The notes under the pieces are model-generated. The model did not search any database, had not been told where the DNA came from, and worked only from the letters and a program-made list of their open reading frames with translations. From contig JAFGMY010000156.1 of NCBI GenBank assembly GCA_016927325.1, positions 36,415 to 100,414 of the forward strand: a DNA stretch of 64,000 nucleotides. Reading direction: 5' to 3'. Position 1 is the first letter of the stretch. Each line of letters starts with the position of its first letter. This DNA is from Actinomycetota bacterium (GTDB lineage: Bacteria > Actinomycetota > Geothermincolia > Fen-727 > Anoxymicrobiaceae). Both the position numbers and the translations under genes were made by a program. Below are positions 7,910 through 54,181 of this stretch, piece after piece.

Positions 7910-10102
7910 TCAATGATCCGCTTCTTCGTGAGTTGGAACCGTAAAAGAAAAAGACGAACCTTTTCCGAACTCACTCTCCGCCCATATCTGGCCGCCATGC
8001 GCCTCAATGATAGCTTTTGAGATGGACAGCCCGAGACCGGTACCACCCTGTGCGGTCTCAACGCATTCTCCTTTTGTAAACAGCGTGAATATTGAATCAA
8101 TCTGTTCCGATGGAATTCCGGAGCCGGTATCCGATATGGTAATTTTGATCTGGTCGTTTTCCAGATTCTGGGCGATTATATGCAGCCCTCCGGAAGAAGT
8201 GTATTTTATGGAGTTGCTTATGAGGTTGAAAAGTACCTGGGAAAGTCTGCCAAGGTCGGCATTCACGTGTTTCAGGTTCGGCAGGCAGTCCACCGTTACG
8301 GTAAGCCCCTTTTCATTGATCGCGCTTTCGAGCATTGAGAGTATGTTATCAATCAGCATCCTGGTATTTATCGGCTTCTTGTCCAGCGTCACAAGGCCTG
8401 CGTACATACCGGCAAGATCGATGAGGTTGTTTGCCAGGTAGGAGAGCCGGTCAATCGAAAGCGAGAGGATGTCAAGGGACCTGTTCTGGTCGTCATCGAG
8501 CGATTCCCTGGCACGGCGGGTCAGAAGCTCGAAACCAAGCTTCAGGGACGTAAGGGGCGTTCTCAGTTCGTGGGCCGCAACCCTTATAAAATCCAGCCTC
8601 GCTTTTTCCAGCTTCTTTATATCGGTAAGGTCGCTGATTACTCCAACGATAAACTCGGCTTCGCCCGATTCATTTTTTAACGGTGTTTTTAAGGTCCTGA
8701 TCGTGTGCCGGGCACCCTGCTTATCCAAAAATACCCGTTCGTCGGAGTAGACCAGTTCGCTGTTTTCAAGCACTACAGAGTCGTTTTCAGAAAGTATGCC
8801 GGAGAGCCTGGAGGGAAATATTTCAACATCTTCCTTTCCGATAATCTCGTCTTCGGAGTATCCAAGAAGCCTTGTCAGGGCGTCGTTGACGAAAGTGAAT
8901 TTCAGCTCACGGTCTTTAATAAAAACAGGTTCAGCAAGGTTATCGATAACGCTTTCAAGAAAATCACTCAACTCCTTCAGTTCTTCATGCGATTTCTTCA
9001 GGATAATACTGCGGTCGCGCTCCTCTTCGACTTGAGCGGTGACAACTTTTATCTCCTGTTCCGCCTGAATCAGGCGCAAGGCTTCCCTCATGTCGTGGGC
9101 TACCACAACAGCTCCGATTTCCCTGCCGGAACGCTTCTTTACGTCGCCGCGGCTTCTGGTTACAGGGATCAGCTCCCCTTCCTTGCTTACAAGGAAGCTC
9201 CACTTGGAGCTTTCGTCTTTTTTCTGTTCGAGATCCGGATGACCCGAGCCGGGTGGCCTGTCTACAAATAGCCTGCTCACCGGTGTGCCGATCAATTCGC
9301 CTTTCAAGTATCCCGAAAGCTTTTCCGCGACCGGATTAGCGTTATCGATAATGCCTGCAGGGTCGGCGATGAATACCGCGTCGTTTATATTTGAAATTAT
9401 TGCACCGCCCATTACTCCCGCAACGGTTGTAAGGAGGTCATACCTCGTGACAGCGAAGGCGATAACCACCGCCATCCCTATTGTGCCGACGAATGAGATT
9501 ACCGGCATGGACACCCCGAATGCAGGAAGTATTACGCTTGAGATCAGCTCGGAAGTTATTGGCAGAAGACCGGCGATGATCATGTAGACCAGCAGGTTCT
9601 TTTTTCTTTTTATGCCTGTTCTGAAATAGCTGAGCACCATTATTGTCAGGCCCGCGACAACGCAGAAAGAAACAAAAAGTTTGGAAGGAATCCGAAGCAG
9701 GCCTTCAATTTCTTTGTACTCCCACCCCGATTTGTAAAAACCTTTGAACATGAGTTCAGTTGTCCAGGTTAATATGACAAGAGCAACACTTATTGCGTAC
9801 ATGCAGAGCAGCACGGGCACTTTGAACCTGTTGTTGAAGTCCACGAATTCGGTCATTATATGAAAAACCAAAGGCCCCAGGAGACACCATCCGATAGCCG
9901 CGAATTCAGCGCCGAACGTTGCGGCCTGCTCTGTTGTCGCGACGCGCATTAATAACTCACCCGTTCTCCAGGCCGCAAAAGAAAACATGGCGAGAAAGAA
10001 AAGTTGGTTAACCCTGAATCCTGGTTCCCGGGATAATATGTACAGGCCCAGTGAAACGGTTATAAACAGACTGATTGCCGACAATATGGCATAAGTACTC
10101 AC
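7910..10102 (-). CDS. sensor histidine kinase with N-terminal 6-7 TM sensor region, PAS domains, HisKA and HATPase_c; no cognate response regulator nearby
   Basis: 730 aa; H-box AAHELRTPLTSL, N box NLISNSIKYT, G1 DTGSGIP, G2 GGTGLGLSISK; multi-TM N-terminus; GTG start. Confidence 0.85.
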   Translation of the reverse strand: MSTYAILSAISLFITVSLGLYILSREPGFRVNQLFFLAMFSFAAWRTGELLMRVATTEQAATFGAEFAAIGWCLLGPLVFHIMTEFVDFNNRFKVPVLLCMYAISVALVILTWTTELMFKGFYKSGWEYKEIEGLLRIPSKLFVSFCVVAGLTIMVLSYFRTGIKRKKNLLVYMIIAGLLPITSELISSVILPAFGVSMPVISFVGTIGMAVVIAFAVTRYDLLTTVAGVMGGAIISNINDAVFIADPAGIIDNANPVAEKLSGYLKGELIGTPVSRLFVDRPPGSGHPDLEQKKDESSKWSFLVSKEGELIPVTRSRGDVKKRSGREIGAVVVAHDMREALRLIQAEQEIKVVTAQVEEERDRSIILKKSHEELKELSDFLESVIDNLAEPVFIKDRELKFTFVNDALTRLLGYSEDEIIGKEDVEIFPSRLSGILSENDSVVLENSELVYSDERVFLDKQGARHTIRTLKTPLKNESGEAEFIVGVISDLTDIKKLEKARLDFIRVAAHELRTPLTSLKLGFELLTRRARESLDDDQNRSLDILSLSIDRLSYLANNLIDLAGMYAGLVTLDKKPINTRMLIDNILSMLESAINEKGLTVTVDCLPNLKHVNADLGRLSQVLFNLISNSIKYTSSGGLHIIAQNLENDQIKITISDTGSGIPSEQIDSIFTLFTKGECVETAQGGTGLGLSISKAIIEAHGGQIWAESEFGKGSSFSFTVPTHEEADH

Positions 10103-10428
10103 GTAACGGCCGCTTTCTGAATATAACGACTTTAAGTTAAGACAGGCCTTTGCCTGTGACCGCTTGAGTGTTTTCCGCCATTAACAGACCAACAGTTCCT
10201 CATTCATGAATAGAAAACAATGTTCCTGTTAAATACTACATAGCAACGTATTATATTCATATATTATTCATTGATATGCAGAAGAAACAATTTTAATAAT
10301 TATAACATATATGGACTTACTCGAATTCGAAGTTGGCAAGAATCTTTAAGCAATCCTCTGTTATTCTTATAACGTGATTTCAGGGTAAGCCGACACATTA
10401 GATCTGGGACATGAAATAAGTGGAAGGT

Positions 10429-11517
10429 TCAGGTACCGTCTGGGTCGGAGCAGTTATCGTATGATGTTGCTTTGCCTGACTTTTTTCTGCGCTTTCCGCG
10501 CGGTTTGCTCTTCCTGGCGGAGTATTTGATGTATATGAATACGGCCACCGCGAGCAGCAGGAGTCCGGCGATAAGGAATATTACCGGCACCCATTTTCTT
10601 GCGAAATCAAGGGTGGCGGCATGTTTTGCCGCAAGGTCTACCGTTTCCCTGATACTTTCCCCGGTTCGTTTGTAGTCTAGAGATGCGACTTCAACAAGGT
10701 TGTCTTGTTCTCCCTGGAGAGCGGTGTTTACATAATACGTCCGGTTATAGACAGGGGTATCGACCATTATCCCGGTTGTTGGCTCAAAAGCGGTTATCGA
10801 AGAAATAGTAGTATAGTATGCAACGGGCAACTGCTGATCGTCCGTTACCGGGAGGCCTGGATTCGACGTCAGTCTCTTAAGCATCGCGCCCGATATTTCA
10901 GTAGGGAAGCCGAGAGGAGAGCCGACTATTTTCTCGGAATCCACTGTTATGTCAAAAAGATAAACCCTGACGTCCTTGTAATCTTCCCCGTCCCTTGTTT
11001 CCTCCTTCACAAATTGCAGTCTTATAACGTCAACGGTTTCGTTGTCCCAGCTTTCAAAAACTCCAGGCTTGAGGTCGAATGGAATGAGGTAGCCCTTTCG
11101 CTCCTGGTCGCTTGCTTCTCCAATTACGTTTTGCCCGGTTTTCCTGTCCATGTCGTAAATATGCTTTATCGTAGCCAGATTCTGGCCTGTTCTGGACTTG
11201 AGTTCTATGACCTCGTCAATGGCAATAACATCAGCACTGCTTTTTCCGGGAATGCTTTTCAGTGTCCATGACAAGGTTATCGGTAGCGAGATTTCCTGGT
11301 TTAACGCGTAGGGGTTGAAAGACGCGGGGTCGACATTCAGAAGGAGAGTACCTTCAAATTGCATCGTGAATTCGATATCGTCATTAACTCTAATAAAACC
11401 GGGGAGTATCACCTTGCTCCATATCGGAGCCATTGCAATCAGGAGGATACCTATTGTCACCAGGGCGATTATCAGTACTTTGGTCTTCTTCTTCAATTTC
11501 TCATTCTCAATTCTCAA
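10429..11517 (-). CDS. hypothetical bitopic membrane protein (N- and C-terminal TM anchors, large extracytoplasmic domain; DUF3068-like architecture)
   Basis: 362 aa; N-terminal TM (VLIIALVTIGILLIAMAPIW), C-terminal TM (WVPVIFLIAGLLLLAVAVFIYI) followed by a Lys/Arg-rich tail; the DUF3068 assignment is from recall of topology and size only. Confidence 0.4.
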   Translation of the reverse strand: MRIENEKLKKKTKVLIIALVTIGILLIAMAPIWSKVILPGFIRVNDDIEFTMQFEGTLLLNVDPASFNPYALNQEISLPITLSWTLKSIPGKSSADVIAIDEVIELKSRTGQNLATIKHIYDMDRKTGQNVIGEASDQERKGYLIPFDLKPGVFESWDNETVDVIRLQFVKEETRDGEDYKDVRVYLFDITVDSEKIVGSPLGFPTEISGAMLKRLTSNPGLPVTDDQQLPVAYYTTISSITAFEPTTGIMVDTPVYNRTYYVNTALQGEQDNLVEVASLDYKRTGESIRETVDLAAKHAATLDFARKWVPVIFLIAGLLLLAVAVFIYIKYSARKSKPRGKRRKKSGKATSYDNCSDPDGT

Positions 11518-46100: not shown

Positions 46101-46325
46101 ATGTACATAAAAATAAAAGTCATTCCCGGGGCAAATAAAAACAGGATTGAAACCGCAGGCGAAGAGGAGCTAAGGGTTTATGTCAAGGTACCGCCGGTAA
46201 AAGGAAAGGCCAACGAAGAAATGATCGGATTACTGGCAAAACACTTTAAAGTCGGTAAAAGCGAAGTAGAAATTGTAAAAGGCCGACGCTCAAGAAACAA
46301 GGTCATAAGAATAAACGGCATATAA
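46101..46325 (+). CDS. yggU: DUF167 / YggU-family protein
   Basis: 74 aa; IKVIPGANKNRIE ... LRVYVKVPPVKGKANEE signature of UPF0235. Confidence 0.75.
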   Translation: MYIKIKVIPGANKNRIETAGEEELRVYVKVPPVKGKANEEMIGLLAKHFKVGKSEVEIVKGRRSRNKVIRINGI

Positions 46326-46343
46326 GACCGGGGAATGCTGTAA

Positions 46344-46949
46344 ATGAGTGATACATGGGAGAATTGCTTTACCAGCCGGGAATCGATGAGGCTCTTTATC
46401 GGGATACCACTGGATGCTGCTTCCAGGAGGCGGATAAGCAAAGCCTGTGATTTCCTTAAAGAATGCGTTCAAGACACAAGATGGGTCAAACCCGAGAATC
46501 TGCATATTACTATGAAGTTTCTGGGTGACACACCGGGAACTATGGTGCCTGAGATTGCGGAAGTTTTACACATGGCTTCAGTTTACCTCCCATTTGAGAT
46601 GAAACTAGGTGGAATTGGAGCTTTTTCGTCACTGGGATCTGCTAGAGTAATTTGGGTTGGAGCCTATGATGATTCAGGAACAGTGCATAAAATATACAAA
46701 GAGATAGAGCGGGGAATGAGCAGGCTCGGGTACCCGGGGGAAAAACGAGAATACAGCCCTCACGTCACGGTTGGGCGGTCGAGAAACAAACCTGTCAGGA
46801 TCGATAATGATGTGGCTGCGCGGTATAAAGACCTGTCAATATTGACTGTTGATGAAATAATACTCTTTCAAAGCGACCTCAGGAGTAGTGGGGCGGAGTA
46901 TTCGATAATAGAAAGGGCTGTCGGACAGGGATTGAAAACTCAGAAGTAA
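46344..46949 (+). CDS. thpR: RNA 2',3'-cyclic phosphodiesterase (ThpR/LigT, 2H family)
   Basis: Two H-x-T/S-x motifs (HITMKFLG and HVTVGRS); alternative start [10 protein letters not shown] at 46389. Confidence 0.8.
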
Positions 46950-48500: not shown

Positions 48501-48658
48501 GTTTGACACTAAAATACCGCGAGACTAGAATTGAATAAGATTCCGTTGGTGCGGGATATCAGTGATTTGTTTTAGTTTATCTTAATGATAGATTATATCA
48601 AGTTCTAAATATCATAATATGAAGTTTAAATTATAAGTTGAATCTATTGATATTACTG

Positions 48659-48684
48659 CGCTAAGCAATGCTTGGCGTTTTTTT
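48659..48684 (+). terminator. intrinsic terminator-like hairpin between recX and rny
   Basis: Stem CGCTAAGC / GCTTGGCG (one U-G wobble) followed by 7 T; sits 7 nt upstream of the GAGGAGG SD of rny. Confidence 0.5.
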
Positions 48685-48705
48685 CGTAGAGAGGAGGTCT
48701 TCAAG

Positions 48706-50238
48706 ATTATATATGCAATTATTGCTGTCGGCGCCGTAGTTATCGGTGCTTTGATCGGGTATCTTGGCCGAAAATTTGTCGGTGAGGCTAGGGTATCCAC
48801 AGCGGAAGCAAGCGCAAAAAAAATATTGGATGACGCAAAGAGAGAAGCCGAGAGCTTGAAACGTGAGGGCCAGGTAGAGGCAAAAGACAAGATACATGCC
48901 ATGCGTTCAGAAGCCGAAAGAGAGCTGAAAAGCAGAAGAAGCGATCTCCAGCGTCTGGAACGGCGTCTGATGCAGCGTGAGGAAATGATCGAATCCAAGG
49001 ACTCTGAAGCGGTGAAAAAGGAAAAACGGCTTGGTTCGTGGGAAGAGAACCTGGCATCTCAGGAATCCAAACTGGCAAAAGCCGCTTCCGAGCAGAAAAG
49101 GGTTTTGGAAAAGATTGCATGCATGACTGCAAACGAAGCCCGTGATTACCTTATCGGTTCGATCGAGGAAGATGTAAAAAGGGACTGTGCCCTTTTTGTA
49201 AAGGACGAAGAAATAAAGGCAAAGGAAGAGGCGGATAAGAACGCGAGAAAAATCATATCGCTCGCTATACAAAGGTGCGCTTCGGAACATGTGGCGGAGA
49301 CTACCGTATCGGTTGTTCCACTGCCTAACGATGAAATGAAGGGCAGGATAATAGGCAGGGAAGGCAGAAACATCAGGACTTTCGAGAACCTTACCGGAAT
49401 AAATCTGATAATTGATGACACTCCCGAAGCGGTGATACTGTCCAGTTTTGACCCCGTAAGAAGGGAAATAGCCAGGTTGACTCTGGAAAAGTTGCTTTCA
49501 GATGGGAGAATACAACCCGCAAGAATAGAAGAGATGTATGAGAAGTCTAAAGCTAAAGTAGAGAATGAAGTTAGAGTGGCGGGCGAAGAGACTACGTTCG
49601 ATTTGGGAGTAACCAATATAAACAAGGAACTGGTAAGGGTTCTCGGAAGATTAAAGTTCAGGACTTCTTATGGACAGAATGTTCTTATACACTCCATTGA
49701 AGTTGCGAACCTTGCCGGGATGATGGCATGTGAGTTGGGGATGGAGCCGAAAATAGCCAAACGCGCAGGACTTCTTCACGATATAGGCAAAGCGGTAGAT
49801 CATGAGGTTGAGGGATCGCATGCGTCGATAGGGGCGGAACTCGGAAAAAGGCTTGGAGAAAGCAGCGTAATATGCCATGCGATTGAGTCCCATCATGGGG
49901 AAGTTGAGGCTAAGACAATTGAAGATGTGCTGGTGCAGGCGGCGGACGCCATTTCGGCGGCGAGACCGGGGGCAAGAAGAGAAACACTGGAAAGCTATGT
50001 AAAGCGCCTGGAGAAACTGGAGACCATGGCTGATTCGTTCCCAGGTGTTGATAAAGCCTATGCAATGCAGGCTGGGAGAGAAATAAGGATTATGGTGCAG
50101 GCTGAAGAAGTAGACGATATGGGAAGCACTGTTCTGGCAAGAGATATAGCAAAGGAAATTGAGGAGCAACTCGATTATCCCGGACAAATTCGCGTAACCG
50201 TAATTCGGGAAACGCGGGTTGTTGAGTATGCTAAATAA
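48706..50238 (+). CDS. rny: ribonuclease Y (membrane-anchored, KH + HD domains)
   Basis: KH ([20 protein letters not shown]) and HD ([13 protein letters not shown] ... LLHDIGK) domains; N-terminal [22 protein letters not shown] lies upstream of the ORF-track TTG (48751) and is reached only from ATT 48706 / ATA 48709, 8 nt after GAGGAGG. Confidence 0.8.
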
Positions 50239-50271
50239 AAAGCGGGCAAACAACTGTGTGGGAAAGATATC

Positions 50272-51408
50272 TTGAAATCTCAAACAGAAATGCACCGATC
50301 ACATGATTCCTCGGAAGACAAGGCTTTAAATGATTTCATTTCAAGCCTGACCTCTAACACTCTGCAAAAAGTCGAAGAGAAGCTGGGGTACGGCTTCGTC
50401 AAGCTGAAAGTGGCTGAAGCGGAGAGAAGGCAAGCTTACCATGATATAAGATCCGTCGAGGATGTTATCCGTGAACTGGTAAGAAATTCAAGGGATGCCG
50501 GGGCGAATAACGTACTGGTAGGTTTCCAGAAAGAGAAAGGCCGTTTTCGCCGGATAACCGTCCTGGATGACGGATGCGGCGTACCGGAGGAAATGCAATC
50601 ACTGATTTTCGAACCAAGGGTTACTTCCAGGTGCGAAAGCTACGAGGAAGACAGGTTCGGGGTTCACGGCAGAGGAATGGCACTGTTTTCGATCAGGTCG
50701 AGGGTTGAGGAAATAAAGCTGGTCACTTCCGTTCCGGGGTCAGGTACATCAATCGATGTGAAAATCGATACTTCCAAGTTGCCTGAAAAGTCTGATCAGG
50801 CGTCAATGCCTCAGCTTTGCCGTGAAGGGGACACATGTGAGATAGGTTCCGGTACGCATAACGTAAACAGGCTGCTTCTTGAAGTTTCGATCGATTTCAG
50901 AGATAAAAACTTTTATGTGGGTTCTTTCGCTGAGATTGCTTCGACGTTATACAGTATGAGGGAGGAGAGCCCGGGAGGTTCCAGCACCGGGGTATGGACT
51001 GACCTTTACTGCATAAGTGACGCAAAATCCTTATCTGAATTTTGCACTGAGGAACTGGGTCTTGCCGTGTCGGAACGAAACGCTTACAGAGTATTGAACG
51101 GCGAGATACCGCCGCTTGAATCTGTTCTCGACAAGGCGCTGTCGGTGGCTCGGATAGTAAATGACCAAGACCTGAAAACCCGCACGCGTCGTCTGGAAAT
51201 CGACAAGGACGATATCGACTCCGGCATTGAAAAGAACCGCCTGAGGATGCTTAAGAGCGGTGAACTCGAGGAGATCGGGGAGGGGGTCAAGGCGGCAGCA
51301 GGCCGGGTTATCGAAAAATATTACCTCAGGGTCAACGGCAGCCCGAAGATTAGAAAAGGCCGGGGGAAAATAGTAATATCCCTCTATGTATCGGAAGAAG
51401 ACGAGTAA
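50272..51408 (+). CDS. uncharacterised GHKL-superfamily ATPase with MutL/MORC/TopoVI-B-type Bergerat motifs; no kinase H-box or MutL C-terminal domain
   Basis: 378 aa; motif I ELVRNSRDAGA, motif II LDDGCGV, motif III GVHGRGMALFS, then TSR-like segment; remaining about 200 aa have no recognisable family. Confidence 0.5.
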   Translation: MKSQTEMHRSHDSSEDKALNDFISSLTSNTLQKVEEKLGYGFVKLKVAEAERRQAYHDIRSVEDVIRELVRNSRDAGANNVLVGFQKEKGRFRRITVLDDGCGVPEEMQSLIFEPRVTSRCESYEEDRFGVHGRGMALFSIRSRVEEIKLVTSVPGSGTSIDVKIDTSKLPEKSDQASMPQLCREGDTCEIGSGTHNVNRLLLEVSIDFRDKNFYVGSFAEIASTLYSMREESPGGSSTGVWTDLYCISDAKSLSEFCTEELGLAVSERNAYRVLNGEIPPLESVLDKALSVARIVNDQDLKTRTRRLEIDKDDIDSGIEKNRLRMLKSGELEEIGEGVKAAAGRVIEKYYLRVNGSPKIRKGRGKIVISLYVSEEDE

Positions 51409-52458: not shown

Positions 52459-52833
52459 ATGGCGTTAAAAGTACTGCAGATAATCTGCGCGGTAGCGGTT
52501 GTTGTTATCGTTTTGTTGATGATACCCGTAATGTTGAAGCTGAAAAGGACATTGGAGGAAGTCGGAAGGATGATTGTTGAAACCAGGCCCGGCACTATGA
52601 AGGCGATAAAACAGGCCGAAGCAACTCTGGATAGTGTCAATGAGGAACTGGAGAACGTGGAAAAGGTCACCAGCGATGCGTCACTGCTGATCGGCAAAAT
52701 GGGTGAGGCCGCCGACTCTCTCGAAAACACGATAAAATCACCGATAACAAAAATGGGGTTTATTTCAACCGGCGCCGCGGTAACGAGCATAGCTGTAAGA
52801 AAGCAACTGCTCAAGAACAAGAAGAAGCAGTAA
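52459..52833 (+). CDS. DUF948-like small membrane protein
   Basis: 124 aa; N-terminal TM + coiled-coil as in Firmicutes DUF948 proteins; RBS AAAGGAAG. Confidence 0.5.
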   Translation: MALKVLQIICAVAVVVIVLLMIPVMLKLKRTLEEVGRMIVETRPGTMKAIKQAEATLDSVNEELENVEKVTSDASLLIGKMGEAADSLENTIKSPITKMGFISTGAAVTSIAVRKQLLKNKKKQ

Positions 52834-52858: not shown

Positions 52859-54181
52859 ATGATTCCAAATTCCTACATTATCCATACTTTCGGCTGTCAG
52901 ATGAACAAGCACGATTCCGAGCATATCGCCGGAGTGCTCGAGGATAGTGGGTACTCCCGCGCACCGACAGACGAAGAGGCTGAAATAATAATAATGAACA
53001 CCTGTTCTGTCCGGAAAAGCGCGGAAGATAAAGTCTGGGGAAGGCTGAGTTGTTTTGCCGGTGGAGTCCCTCCTCCGAAAATAGTCGCGGTAGGCGGCTG
53101 CATGGCCCAATTGCTGGGCGAAAGCATAATCGACCGTTCCCCCGGCGTGAGACTCGTGTTTGGTATCGGTTCGATGGACCGGTTGCCCGGCCTTATAGAA
53201 AAAAGCAGGGAGAACCCTGTTTGCGACCTCGGCGACATAAACAAAGCTTTCGTTGATTGCCTCCCGTATATTCCAGAGAGTCCCGTCTCCGCATGGGTTC
53301 CGGTAAATCATGGATGTGACAACAGTTGTTCGTACTGTATTGTGCCGGCCGCCAGGGGGAACGCAAGGAGCCGGGATCTTGATGATATCCTGCGTGAAGT
53401 GGAGAAAGCGGCGGGGTCCGGACGTATTGAAGTGATACTGCTGGGTCAGAATGTAAACGCTTACGGAAAGGACCTGTTTCCGCGGGTGCGTTTTTCACAG
53501 TTGCTTGATGCCGTATCGGGAGTGCAGGGCATTCAACGGATAAAATTCGAAACATCCCATCCCGCGGATATGGACGAATCCATAATCGAGGTGATGGCTG
53601 GAAGAGCCAATTTATGCGAGTATCTGCATCTCCCGGCCCAGTCGGGTTCCAACAGAGTGCTCAAAGCGATGAACCGTGGTTACACCAGGGAGGATTATCT
53701 TGAGGAAGTGCGTTTTTCCAGGAAAATAATTCCAGAGATTTCTCTTTCCACGGATATAATCGTTGGATTTCCCGGGGAGACGGACCAGGATTTTCGAGAC
53801 ACGTTTACTCTGCTGGAAGAGGTGCGGTTCAGCAACGCGTTTATCTTCAAGTATTCAAGAAGGGACGGGACGGCCGCCGCGGCAATGCGAAACGAGGTTC
53901 CCACCCGGGTAGTTTCAAACAGGTTCATGTTACTATCTGAGTTGCAGGATAAAATAACCTCCGAAGCGCTTAGGGAGCTCGAGGGAAAGACAGTTGAAGT
54001 TCTTGTGGGAGGTTCGGCTAAGAGAGGTGGCTTTCGCAAGGGGCGCGCAAGGGGCAACCAGGTTGTTCTGTTAAGTTCGGCGCAAGAGCTCGTTGAGGGA
54101 ACACTGGTCATGGCAAGAGTTACCGGAACCGGAAAGCATACCGCTCGCGGCGAGGTAGTGGAAACAATAACGAAGGCCTGA
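52859..54181 (+). CDS. miaB: tRNA-2-methylthio-N6-dimethylallyladenosine synthase MiaB
   Basis: 440 aa; MTTase Cys (FGCQMN ... NTCSV ... GGCMAQ), radical-SAM CDNSCSYCIVP, C-terminal TRAM domain. Confidence 0.85.
   Translation: MIPNSYIIHTFGCQMNKHDSEHIAGVLEDSGYSRAPTDEEAEIIIMNTCSVRKSAEDKVWGRLSCFAGGVPPPKIVAVGGCMAQLLGESIIDRSPGVRLVFGIGSMDRLPGLIEKSRENPVCDLGDINKAFVDCLPYIPESPVSAWVPVNHGCDNSCSYCIVPAARGNARSRDLDDILREVEKAAGSGRIEVILLGQNVNAYGKDLFPRVRFSQLLDAVSGVQGIQRIKFETSHPADMDESIIEVMAGRANLCEYLHLPAQSGSNRVLKAMNRGYTREDYLEEVRFSRKIIPEISLSTDIIVGFPGETDQDFRDTFTLLEEVRFSNAFIFKYSRRDGTAAAAMRNEVPTRVVSNRFMLLSELQDKITSEALRELEGKTVEVLVGGSAKRGGFRKGRARGNQVVLLSSAQELVEGTLVMARVTGTGKHTARGEVVETITKA

Follow-up and report, generated by a model that had tools for sequence, protein, structure and literature searches.

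In many Gram-positive bacteria mRNA decay is initiated mainly by RNase Y, whose helpers known to date, the Y-complex and YmdB, are those of the Firmicutes. The Y-complex (YaaT/YlbF/YmcA) supplies accessory specificity factors of RNase Y in Bacillus subtilis, where we take the gene order to be rny-ymdB-spoVS and YmdB to be a metallophosphoesterase. We know of no such helpers for the Actinomycetota that carry RNase Y, among them Collinsella, Olsenella and Atopobium, genera abundant in the human gut. The subject of this study is a gene located directly downstream of rny in a stretch of 64,000 nucleotides (nt) from an Actinomycetota bacterium of the Anoxymicrobiaceae (assembly GCA_016927325.1, contig JAFGMY010000156.1); the whole of this stretch is termed the window. 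The gene is real and strongly conserved, and it encodes a GHKL ATPase of the MutL type. The family to which it belongs is large and sharply bounded, with one architecture, and is confined to anaerobic Actinomycetota, the Collinsella and Olsenella of the gut included. The features of the locus are itemized in Table 1.

The protein is present in the NCBI database under the name 'ATP-binding protein' (P0001, from a metagenome-assembled genome of the Actinomycetota), with 100% identity and equal length. Its core is an ATP-binding domain recognized by two Pfam families, HATPase_c (44.8 bits, cutoff 26.4) and HATPase_c_3 (42.5 bits, cutoff 25), over residues 58–167; no further Pfam family matches the protein down to E <= 10. 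Conservation was assessed from 82 representatives that are 30–49% identical to the query, among which 25 columns are invariant. In motif I alignment with MutL identifies E68 as the catalytic glutamate and N72 as the magnesium-binding asparagine, and the intervening R71 is invariant and specific to this family. Within motif II, D99 and G103 are invariant and G101 is present in 81 of the 82 members. The ATP lid has invariant residues at F113 and T118, with either K or R at position 120 throughout, and in motif III six residues are invariant (G130, G133, R134, G135, A137 and L138). The invariant ATP site comprises E68, N72, D99, G103, T118, G133, R134 and G135, and judged from these residues it looks catalytically competent. 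In an AlphaFold2 model of the full-length protein (mean predicted local distance difference test score, pLDDT, 76.9) the ATP-binding domain has a pLDDT of ~85–95 except in the lid.

MutL ranks ahead of the kinases in NCBIfam, the PDB profile search and Foldseek. Of the NCBIfam models, MutL (TIGR00585) matches with E = 9e-14 and the best kinase model with 4e-7; the TIGR00585 score of 51.2 bits lies below its equivalog cutoff of 180. A profile search of the PDB returned MutL N-terminal domains at E values of 7e-10 to 2e-5 and MLH1 and PMS2 at 6e-5 to 4e-4, while outside the MutL group the best histidine kinase scored 3e-3, Topo VI-B 0.05 and MORC4 0.98. Alignment by hhalign with Escherichia coli MutL (probability 97%, E = 5e-11) spans motifs I–III; the E. 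coli MutL (LN40) sequence was entered by hand, and phmmer and the PDB profile search give the same alignment. When the full-length model was used as the query, Foldseek ranked MutL LN40 structures first, with DHp-CA kinases below them at E ~1e-4.

The similarity to MutL is limited to ~82–90 residues, comprising motifs I–III and the 'TSK' segment of the lid. A MutL transducer domain was considered for residues 168–235 and dropped, as hhalign aligns only motifs I–III with E. coli LN40. No Pfam match to HisKA, to the MutL transducer (DNA_mis_repair) or to MutL_C was found in the protein, and none to HATPase_c_2 at E <= 10. Pfam, a sequence search of the PDB and Foldseek all failed to reveal a MutL C-terminal dimerization/endonuclease domain. 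Chains of SpoIIAB and RsbW exist in the PDB; none is among the 50 PDB matches at E <= 1. The sole candidate histidine in the N-terminal helices is residue 57, which is H in 45 members, Q in 31, D in four, N in one and Y in one.

A first-pass annotation, made from the DNA sequence alone, had read motifs I–III as resembling MutL/MORC/TopoVI-B far more than histidine kinases, and the MutL likeness is borne out by NCBIfam, the PDB profile search, hhalign and Foldseek. It had further described a protein lacking an H-box and the MutL dimerization/endonuclease domain, and ending in about 200 residues of no recognizable family. The absence of both elements agrees with the searches above and with the variability of residue 57, and the unrecognizable part amounts to ~210 residues by Pfam, PDB sequence search and Foldseek. 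Pfam, NCBIfam and the PDB profile search give no placement in an anti-sigma-factor or sensor-kinase family, and Pfam and Foldseek reveal no known dimerization domain in the C-terminal half. Two of its suggestions do not survive. The protein was called an orphan, whereas over 1600 homologues share its length and architecture, and it was thought to be possibly degenerate, while the catalytic glutamate, the magnesium-binding asparagine, the adenine-binding aspartate and the glycine motifs are invariant in the 82 members.

The segments flanking the ATP-binding domain carry motifs that are private to the family and as strongly conserved as the ATP site. In the N-terminal segment G41, E49, R53, Q54, D58 and E63 are invariant; the AlphaFold2 model has helices at residues 14–38 and 45–58, with residues 29–46 of low confidence. 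On the C-terminal side the private invariant residues are P180, N197, G217, R269 and R273. The first three lie in the middle region, for which a beta-beta-alpha-beta-alpha fold is predicted, and the two arginines lie in the helical subdomain, where S267 is present in 81 of the 82 members. The LGLxVSxRxAxRV helix of this subdomain resembles a helix-turn-helix by eye only. That reading was rejected, as a profile of 60 sequences gave no match in the PDB, Pfam gave none and the region is not basic. In the C-terminal part Y350 is found in 74 of the 82 members, and an RKGRGK turn is basic in the sublineage of the window only. Modelled alone, residues 168–378 gave a pLDDT of 79.6. The C-terminal half (~210 residues) has no Foldseek match in the PDB or BFVD, and no Pfam family matches more than one of 22 members at E <= 5. 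A weak match of residues 224–332 to DnaE intein chimeras (phmmer, E ~3e-3) vanished when the search was made with the family profile, and is therefore treated as chance.

Table 1. Features of the ATPase gene, its product and the adjoining genes. Positions are those of the window; all features lie on the forward strand.
Feature	Position	Strand	Basis or remark
rny (RNase Y)	48706..50238	+	Pfam RNase_Y_N, KH_1, HD; 5' end uncertain
Spacer between rny and the ATPase gene, 33 nt, with weak GGGAAAG ribosome-binding site	50239..50271	+	sequence read directly
ATPase gene	50272..51408	+	TTG start; stop codon included; 378 amino acids
N-terminal conserved segment VEExLGxGFVxLxxxEAERRQAxxDIRxVED, residues 34–64	50371..50463	+	alignments
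GHKL / Bergerat ATP-binding domain, residues 58–167	50443..50772	+	Pfam HATPase_c and HATPase_c_3
Motif I ELVRNSRDAGA, residues 68–78	50473..50505	+	alignment with MutL
Motif II LDDGCGVP (LDDGCGV, residues 98–104)	50563..50586	+	alignment with MutL
ATP-lid motif FEPRVTSR	50608..50631	+	pairs with MutL '(H)ATSK' segment
Motif III GVHGRGMALFS, residues 130–140	50659..50691	+	MutL type (xRGxAL)
Conserved middle region, residues 168–235	50773..50976	+	motifs PE(K/R)xDQ(S/A)xxP, GxxNxxRxxxE, GS
Helical subdomain, residues 243–285, with helix LGLxVSxRxAxRV	50998..51126	+	
Variable low-confidence linker, residues 300–321	51169..51234	+	pLDDT <50; length and sequence vary
C-terminal long helix and beta-hairpin, residues 322–378	51235..51405	+	model and alignment
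307-amino-acid protein with N-terminal transmembrane segment	51439..52362	+	no Pfam match; in spoVS position
DUF948 membrane protein	52459..52833	+	Pfam; near ATPase gene in Geothermincolia-like loci too
miaB (tRNA methylthiotransferase)	52859..54181	+	conserved downstream anchor of the block

The homologues, obtained with a word-indexed search, are practically all 340–400 amino acids long and align over their full length. A profile search covering 1.84 billion representatives, with clusters at 50% identity, returned 193 clusters at E <= 1e-30, nearly all of 340–400 amino acids with a single match, and 298 at E <= 1e-10, beyond which the GHKL background is entered (3446 at E <= 1e-3). At least 502 GTDB species carry the family, from a scan of one genome per species. 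The named sources are all Actinomycetota outside the class Actinomycetes (Coriobacteriia, Geothermincolia, Aquicultor, Anoxymicrobiaceae and relatives), and the carriers include Geothermincola, Solincola and Aquicultor together with the cultured Parafannyhessea, Olsenella and Collinsella. The closest relatives of the window are Anoxymicrobiaceae, with ~50–53% identity. A few bins bear other labels; two of them, titled Faecalibacterium prausnitzii (locus L030) and Bacteroidaceae (locus L064), are ~73% identical in nucleotide sequence to Collinsella loci over 10 kb, which makes mislabelling or contamination probable.

No Pfam or NCBIfam model is devoted to this family, and its members are named inconsistently in databases ('ATP-binding protein', 'sensor histidine kinase', 'anti-sigma regulatory factor' and 'DNA mismatch repair protein'). 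In the literature library searched, no paper was found on GHKL proteins together with RNase Y; the same holds for RNase Y in Coriobacteriia and for SpoVS in combination with ymdB and RNase Y. Three apparent fusions (P0256, P0266 and P0077) were rejected as they look like frameshifted or internally duplicated assemblies; P0256 opens with the C-terminus of RNase Y running into the ATPase gene. An origin in defence or in mobile elements was rejected on the negative outcome of the PADLOC, phage and plasmid searches. PADLOC gave no real match, the sole one being a stretch of 45 residues at 18 bits, and no phage copies of the gene were found. The single match in the plasmid collection is a 900-kb chromosome-like Collinsella replicon with the same housekeeping context. 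This record (locus L084) is labelled 'plasmid 6', yet holds core housekeeping genes (recA, rny, miaB, lexA and nrdR).

The gene context was counted in the best 80 of the at least 502 loci, within which the neighbour proteins of the window were located by tblastn. Of these 80, 79 have rny upstream of the ATPase gene and in the same orientation; in the exception (L018) the sequence ends 418 nt upstream of the match. The two genes are separated by 1–20 nt or overlap in most loci of Atopobiaceae, Coriobacteriaceae and Collinsella, and are ~40–250 nt apart in most others (counted from the stop codon of rny to the earliest possible start of the ATPase gene). A gap of ~450–660 nt is present in about nine loci from metagenome-assembled genomes of Coriobacteriia (L011, L015, L019, L021, L024, L027, L044, L048 and L055); a regulatory RNA within the long gaps was considered and rejected, with no Rfam match in eight of these loci. 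The 33-nt spacer of the window contains no terminator-like site.

The next gene downstream of the ATPase gene is spoVS in 72 of the 80 loci, with miaB beyond it. The spoVS gene is absent from the locus in the window, L001–L004 and L083, in all of which the DUF948 gene precedes miaB; the 307-amino-acid membrane protein is lineage-specific, being found only in the window and L001–L004. With X denoting the ATPase gene, two further contexts are found: recD2-rny-X-spoVS-miaB-miaA-dapF...hflX-lexA and recA-recX-rny-X-spoVS-DUF948...miaB. In the Collinsella aerofaciens record (NZ_OY725717.1, L084), as annotated by the Prokaryotic Genome Annotation Pipeline (PGAP), the order is cinA-recA-recX-rny-'ATP-binding protein'-spoVS-miaB-miaA-hflX, with a gap of 1 nt between rny and the ATPase gene. 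Here miaB and miaA (8534–10842) abut at 9904/9904 without an intervening mutS-mutL, and the genes after them are hflX and lexA. Since the other neighbours (recX, recD2, spoVS, DUF948 and the 307-amino-acid gene) vary, the pairing of rny with the ATPase gene is the one constant.

The first-pass annotation had placed the gene between rny and a membrane protein. Both are present; however, the membrane protein is confined to close relatives and spoVS is the usual neighbour. The annotation had also compared the site with the neighbourhood where Bacillus carries mutS-mutL next to miaB. The gene does lie in a conserved Gram-positive block, recA-recX-rny...miaB-miaA, but not in the slot of mutS-mutL, which in many Firmicutes is located between miaB and miaA. 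Given the order rny-ymdB-spoVS in B. subtilis, the slot is rather that of ymdB. The gene order points to RNase Y and SpoVS as partners and not to MutS. No mutS gene was seen in the 64-kb window or the flanking regions examined, no STAS or sigma-factor genes in the neighbourhoods examined, and no YmdB-like gene in the loci examined. Just upstream of recA the window has a small YggU-like ORF and a gene of the LigT/ThpR 2',3'-cyclic phosphodiesterase type (46101–46949). LigT recurs before recA in many related loci, and is a further RNA-end-processing gene of the block.

Because the ATPase gene is always located just after rny, a role in RNA processing is more likely than one in DNA mismatch repair. 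Our tentative proposal, drawn from gene order and held at somewhat less than even confidence, is that the protein is a switch driven by ATP, with RNase Y and SpoVS as its partners in acting on RNA. The rny and ATPase genes would be co-transcribed. By comparison with MutL-type GHKL proteins, in which the lid closes and the N-terminal domains dimerize, binding and hydrolysis of ATP would drive a conformational and probably dimerizing switch. The targets or partners of this switch could be membrane-bound RNase Y and, in the loci that have it, SpoVS, as the gene order suggests. SpoVS falls within the Alba superfamily of nucleic-acid-binding proteins (PMC11621453, PMC2732212), and miaB and miaA further downstream are genes of tRNA modification. 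The outcome might be the gating or targeting of endonucleolytic RNA cleavage, in loose analogy to the control that the MutL ATPase domain exerts upon its own endonuclease domain. The invariant N-terminal segment is a candidate strap or dimer interface, and N197, R200, R269 or R273 is a candidate sensor of the gamma-phosphate, the role of the transducer lysine in MutL. Contact with protein partners is more likely than direct contact with nucleic acid, since no sub-region is consistently basic and the helix that looks like a helix-turn-helix is without profile support.

Several observations weigh against the proposal that the ATPase works with RNase Y. Gene order is the one source of the link to RNase Y, and all carriers belong to one phylum, so that inherited synteny could explain part of the rny pattern. 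The neighbourhood is not purely RNA-related, as recA and recX lie just upstream of rny, and the sole long gap inspected (L019:5349–5930) holds a gene for a 193-amino-acid GNAT acetyltransferase (Acetyltransf_7, Acetyltransf_1). There are no informative fusions to RNase Y or SpoVS among the homologues. Profile searches found no RNA-binding or other nucleic-acid-binding domain in the protein, and no sub-region of the family is consistently basic, with median isoelectric points of 5.4–6.5 save in the short variable linker.

The first alternative is that the pairing with rny is inherited synteny, and that the function is unrelated to RNase Y, which would be that of a housekeeping ATP-dependent switch or chaperone-like factor with another target, for example the cell envelope or cell division. 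The gene would then merely occupy a highly stable part of the ancestral Gram-positive chromosome. What is conserved is the entire block cinA/ligT-recA-recX-rny-...-miaB-miaA-hflX-lexA, not the pair of rny and the ATPase gene alone. In the lineage of the window the genes directly downstream encode a membrane protein and the DUF948 protein, the GNAT gene can intervene between rny and the ATPase gene, and the ATPase itself has no RNA-related domain. However, the pair is unbroken in 79 informative loci while its neighbours come and go, it is kept among members only 30–49% identical to the query, and the tiny or overlapping gaps suggest translational coupling. We consider this explanation rather unlikely.

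A GHKL protein kinase, either of the SpoIIAB/RsbW serine type or an atypical histidine kinase, that phosphorylates SpoVS or RNase Y is improbable. IMG does name several members 'anti-sigma regulatory factor (Ser/Thr protein kinase)' and PGAP calls some 'sensor histidine kinase'; the two helices predicted before the ATP-binding domain recall a DHp hairpin, the DHp-CA kinases appear in the Foldseek results, and a small conserved SpoVS is encoded alongside in most genomes. Set against this, motif III (xRGxAL) and the lid (TS(K/R)) are as in MutL, with no GxGLGL G2 box of the kinases, and in NCBIfam and the PDB the kinase models are 6–7 orders of magnitude worse than MutL. The missing matches to HisKA, HATPase_c_2 and SpoIIAB/RsbW count against a kinase, as does the presence of histidine at position 57 in little more than half of the members. 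No STAS or sigma-factor gene is found nearby, and the lineage to which the window belongs has no spoVS at the locus.

A repurposed paralogue of the MutL N-terminal domain might act in DNA maintenance, whether in recombination or in some unknown mismatch repair, in lineages without MutS-MutL or NucS. MutL is the closest known relative of the ATPase, recA and recX lie two genes upstream, miaB and miaA of Collinsella abut with no mutS-mutL between, and SpoVS is Alba-like, Alba proteins being capable of binding DNA. All Coriobacteriia analysed by Castaneda-Garcia et al. (2017) lacked both NucS and MutS-MutL (PMC5290159). The homology with MutL is nevertheless confined to 82 columns, without a transducer, endonuclease or beta-clamp-binding region, no mismatch-recognition partner is encoded in any locus examined, and no sub-region of the protein is consistently basic. 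The tight invariant partner is an RNase and not recA, and recA-rny adjacency occurs in Firmicutes too. A role in DNA repair thus has a low probability, though the reported lack of both repair systems in Coriobacteriia makes it an interesting one. The stronger form, in which the ATPase is the core of an undescribed route of genome maintenance or mismatch correction, perhaps alongside a nuclease and the neighbouring SpoVS with its Alba-like fold, in Coriobacteriia and anaerobic Actinomycetota related to them, is highly unlikely. A decaying MutL remnant or pseudo-enzyme devoid of ATP-dependent activity would account for the absence of two of the three MutL domains, but is scarcely credible and as a decaying relic is excluded by the 25 invariant columns that include the full ATP site in members so divergent, together with the uniform length and architecture across at least 502 species and private terminal motifs as conserved as the ATP site.

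The 5' end of rny in the window has some unusual features. The first canonical start is the TTG at 48751, while an N-terminal transmembrane helix is encoded upstream of it in an open frame. A strong Shine-Dalgarno sequence (AGAGGAGG) lies at 48690–48697, and 8 nt further on there is an in-frame ATT/ATA, with no ATG, GTG or TTG; at the place expected for it, rny seems to have no canonical start codon. A matching open stretch before the TTG is conserved in the close relatives L001–L003, L005 and L083. Upstream of the Shine-Dalgarno sequence is a terminator-like hairpin with a run of seven T residues (48658–48678), and the best sigma-70-like promoter of the region (11 of 12 matches) is located at 48503–48531. 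Taken together, these elements may serve the rny-ATPase operon as a leader or attenuator.

A MutL-type ATPase that is linked to rny, and whose ATP site appears catalytically intact from its conserved residues, is a candidate ATP-dependent regulator of an endoribonuclease; if true, the GHKL fold would thereby gain a new function. Apart from this family, no MutL-like protein has so far been seen in the class in question, for which the absence of both known mismatch-repair systems is reported. It is well defined, and is present in gut bacteria that are relevant to human health.

Of the known systems, the N-terminal ATPase of MutL/MLH/PMS (E. coli LN40, 1b63; Aquifex, 5x9y; B. subtilis, 9n2k) is the closest. 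The Bergerat fold is common to both, together with an ExxxNxxDA motif I, a D(D/N)GxGI motif II, the 'TSK' lid and the xRGxAL motif III, and MutL is the top match in every search. By extension, ATP binding would close the lid and drive a conformational or dimerization switch in the ATPase as well. The two differ in that the present family lacks the transducer (DNA_mis_repair) and the C-terminal dimerization/endonuclease domain, has an arginine (the invariant R71) at the position of the glutamate E32 in MutL, and possesses an N-terminal segment and a 210-residue C-terminal half of its own. Its genomic partner is RNase Y and not MutS.

The match to HATPase_c_3 is shared with MORC, paraMORC and prokaryotic HATPase_c_3 proteins, as in other MutL-like ATPases outside mismatch repair. 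MORC4 is however only a marginal match, no S5-fold or coiled-coil module was recognized in the ATPase, and its context is housekeeping rather than restriction-modification or defence. The CA domains of histidine kinases and SpoIIAB/RsbW have the same superfamily fold, and some members of the family bear kinase names in databases, but the H-box, HisKA and kinase-type G2 box are lacking and the scores are far weaker. SpoIIAB and RsbW are single-domain proteins of ~140–160 amino acids that belong to HATPase_c_2, unlike the 378-residue ATPase, which has no match to that family.

The likeness to YmdB is one of position and not of homology, the ATPase gene occupying the same slot (rny-X-spoVS); in fold and chemistry YmdB is unrelated to the ATPase. 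The Y-complex may be a functional analogue, as a non-nuclease modulator of RNase Y; there is no relation in sequence or fold, and the analogy is wholly our inference. In the family as a whole, an ATPase module of known type is set in a new architecture and paired with a genomic partner that is both new and very stable.

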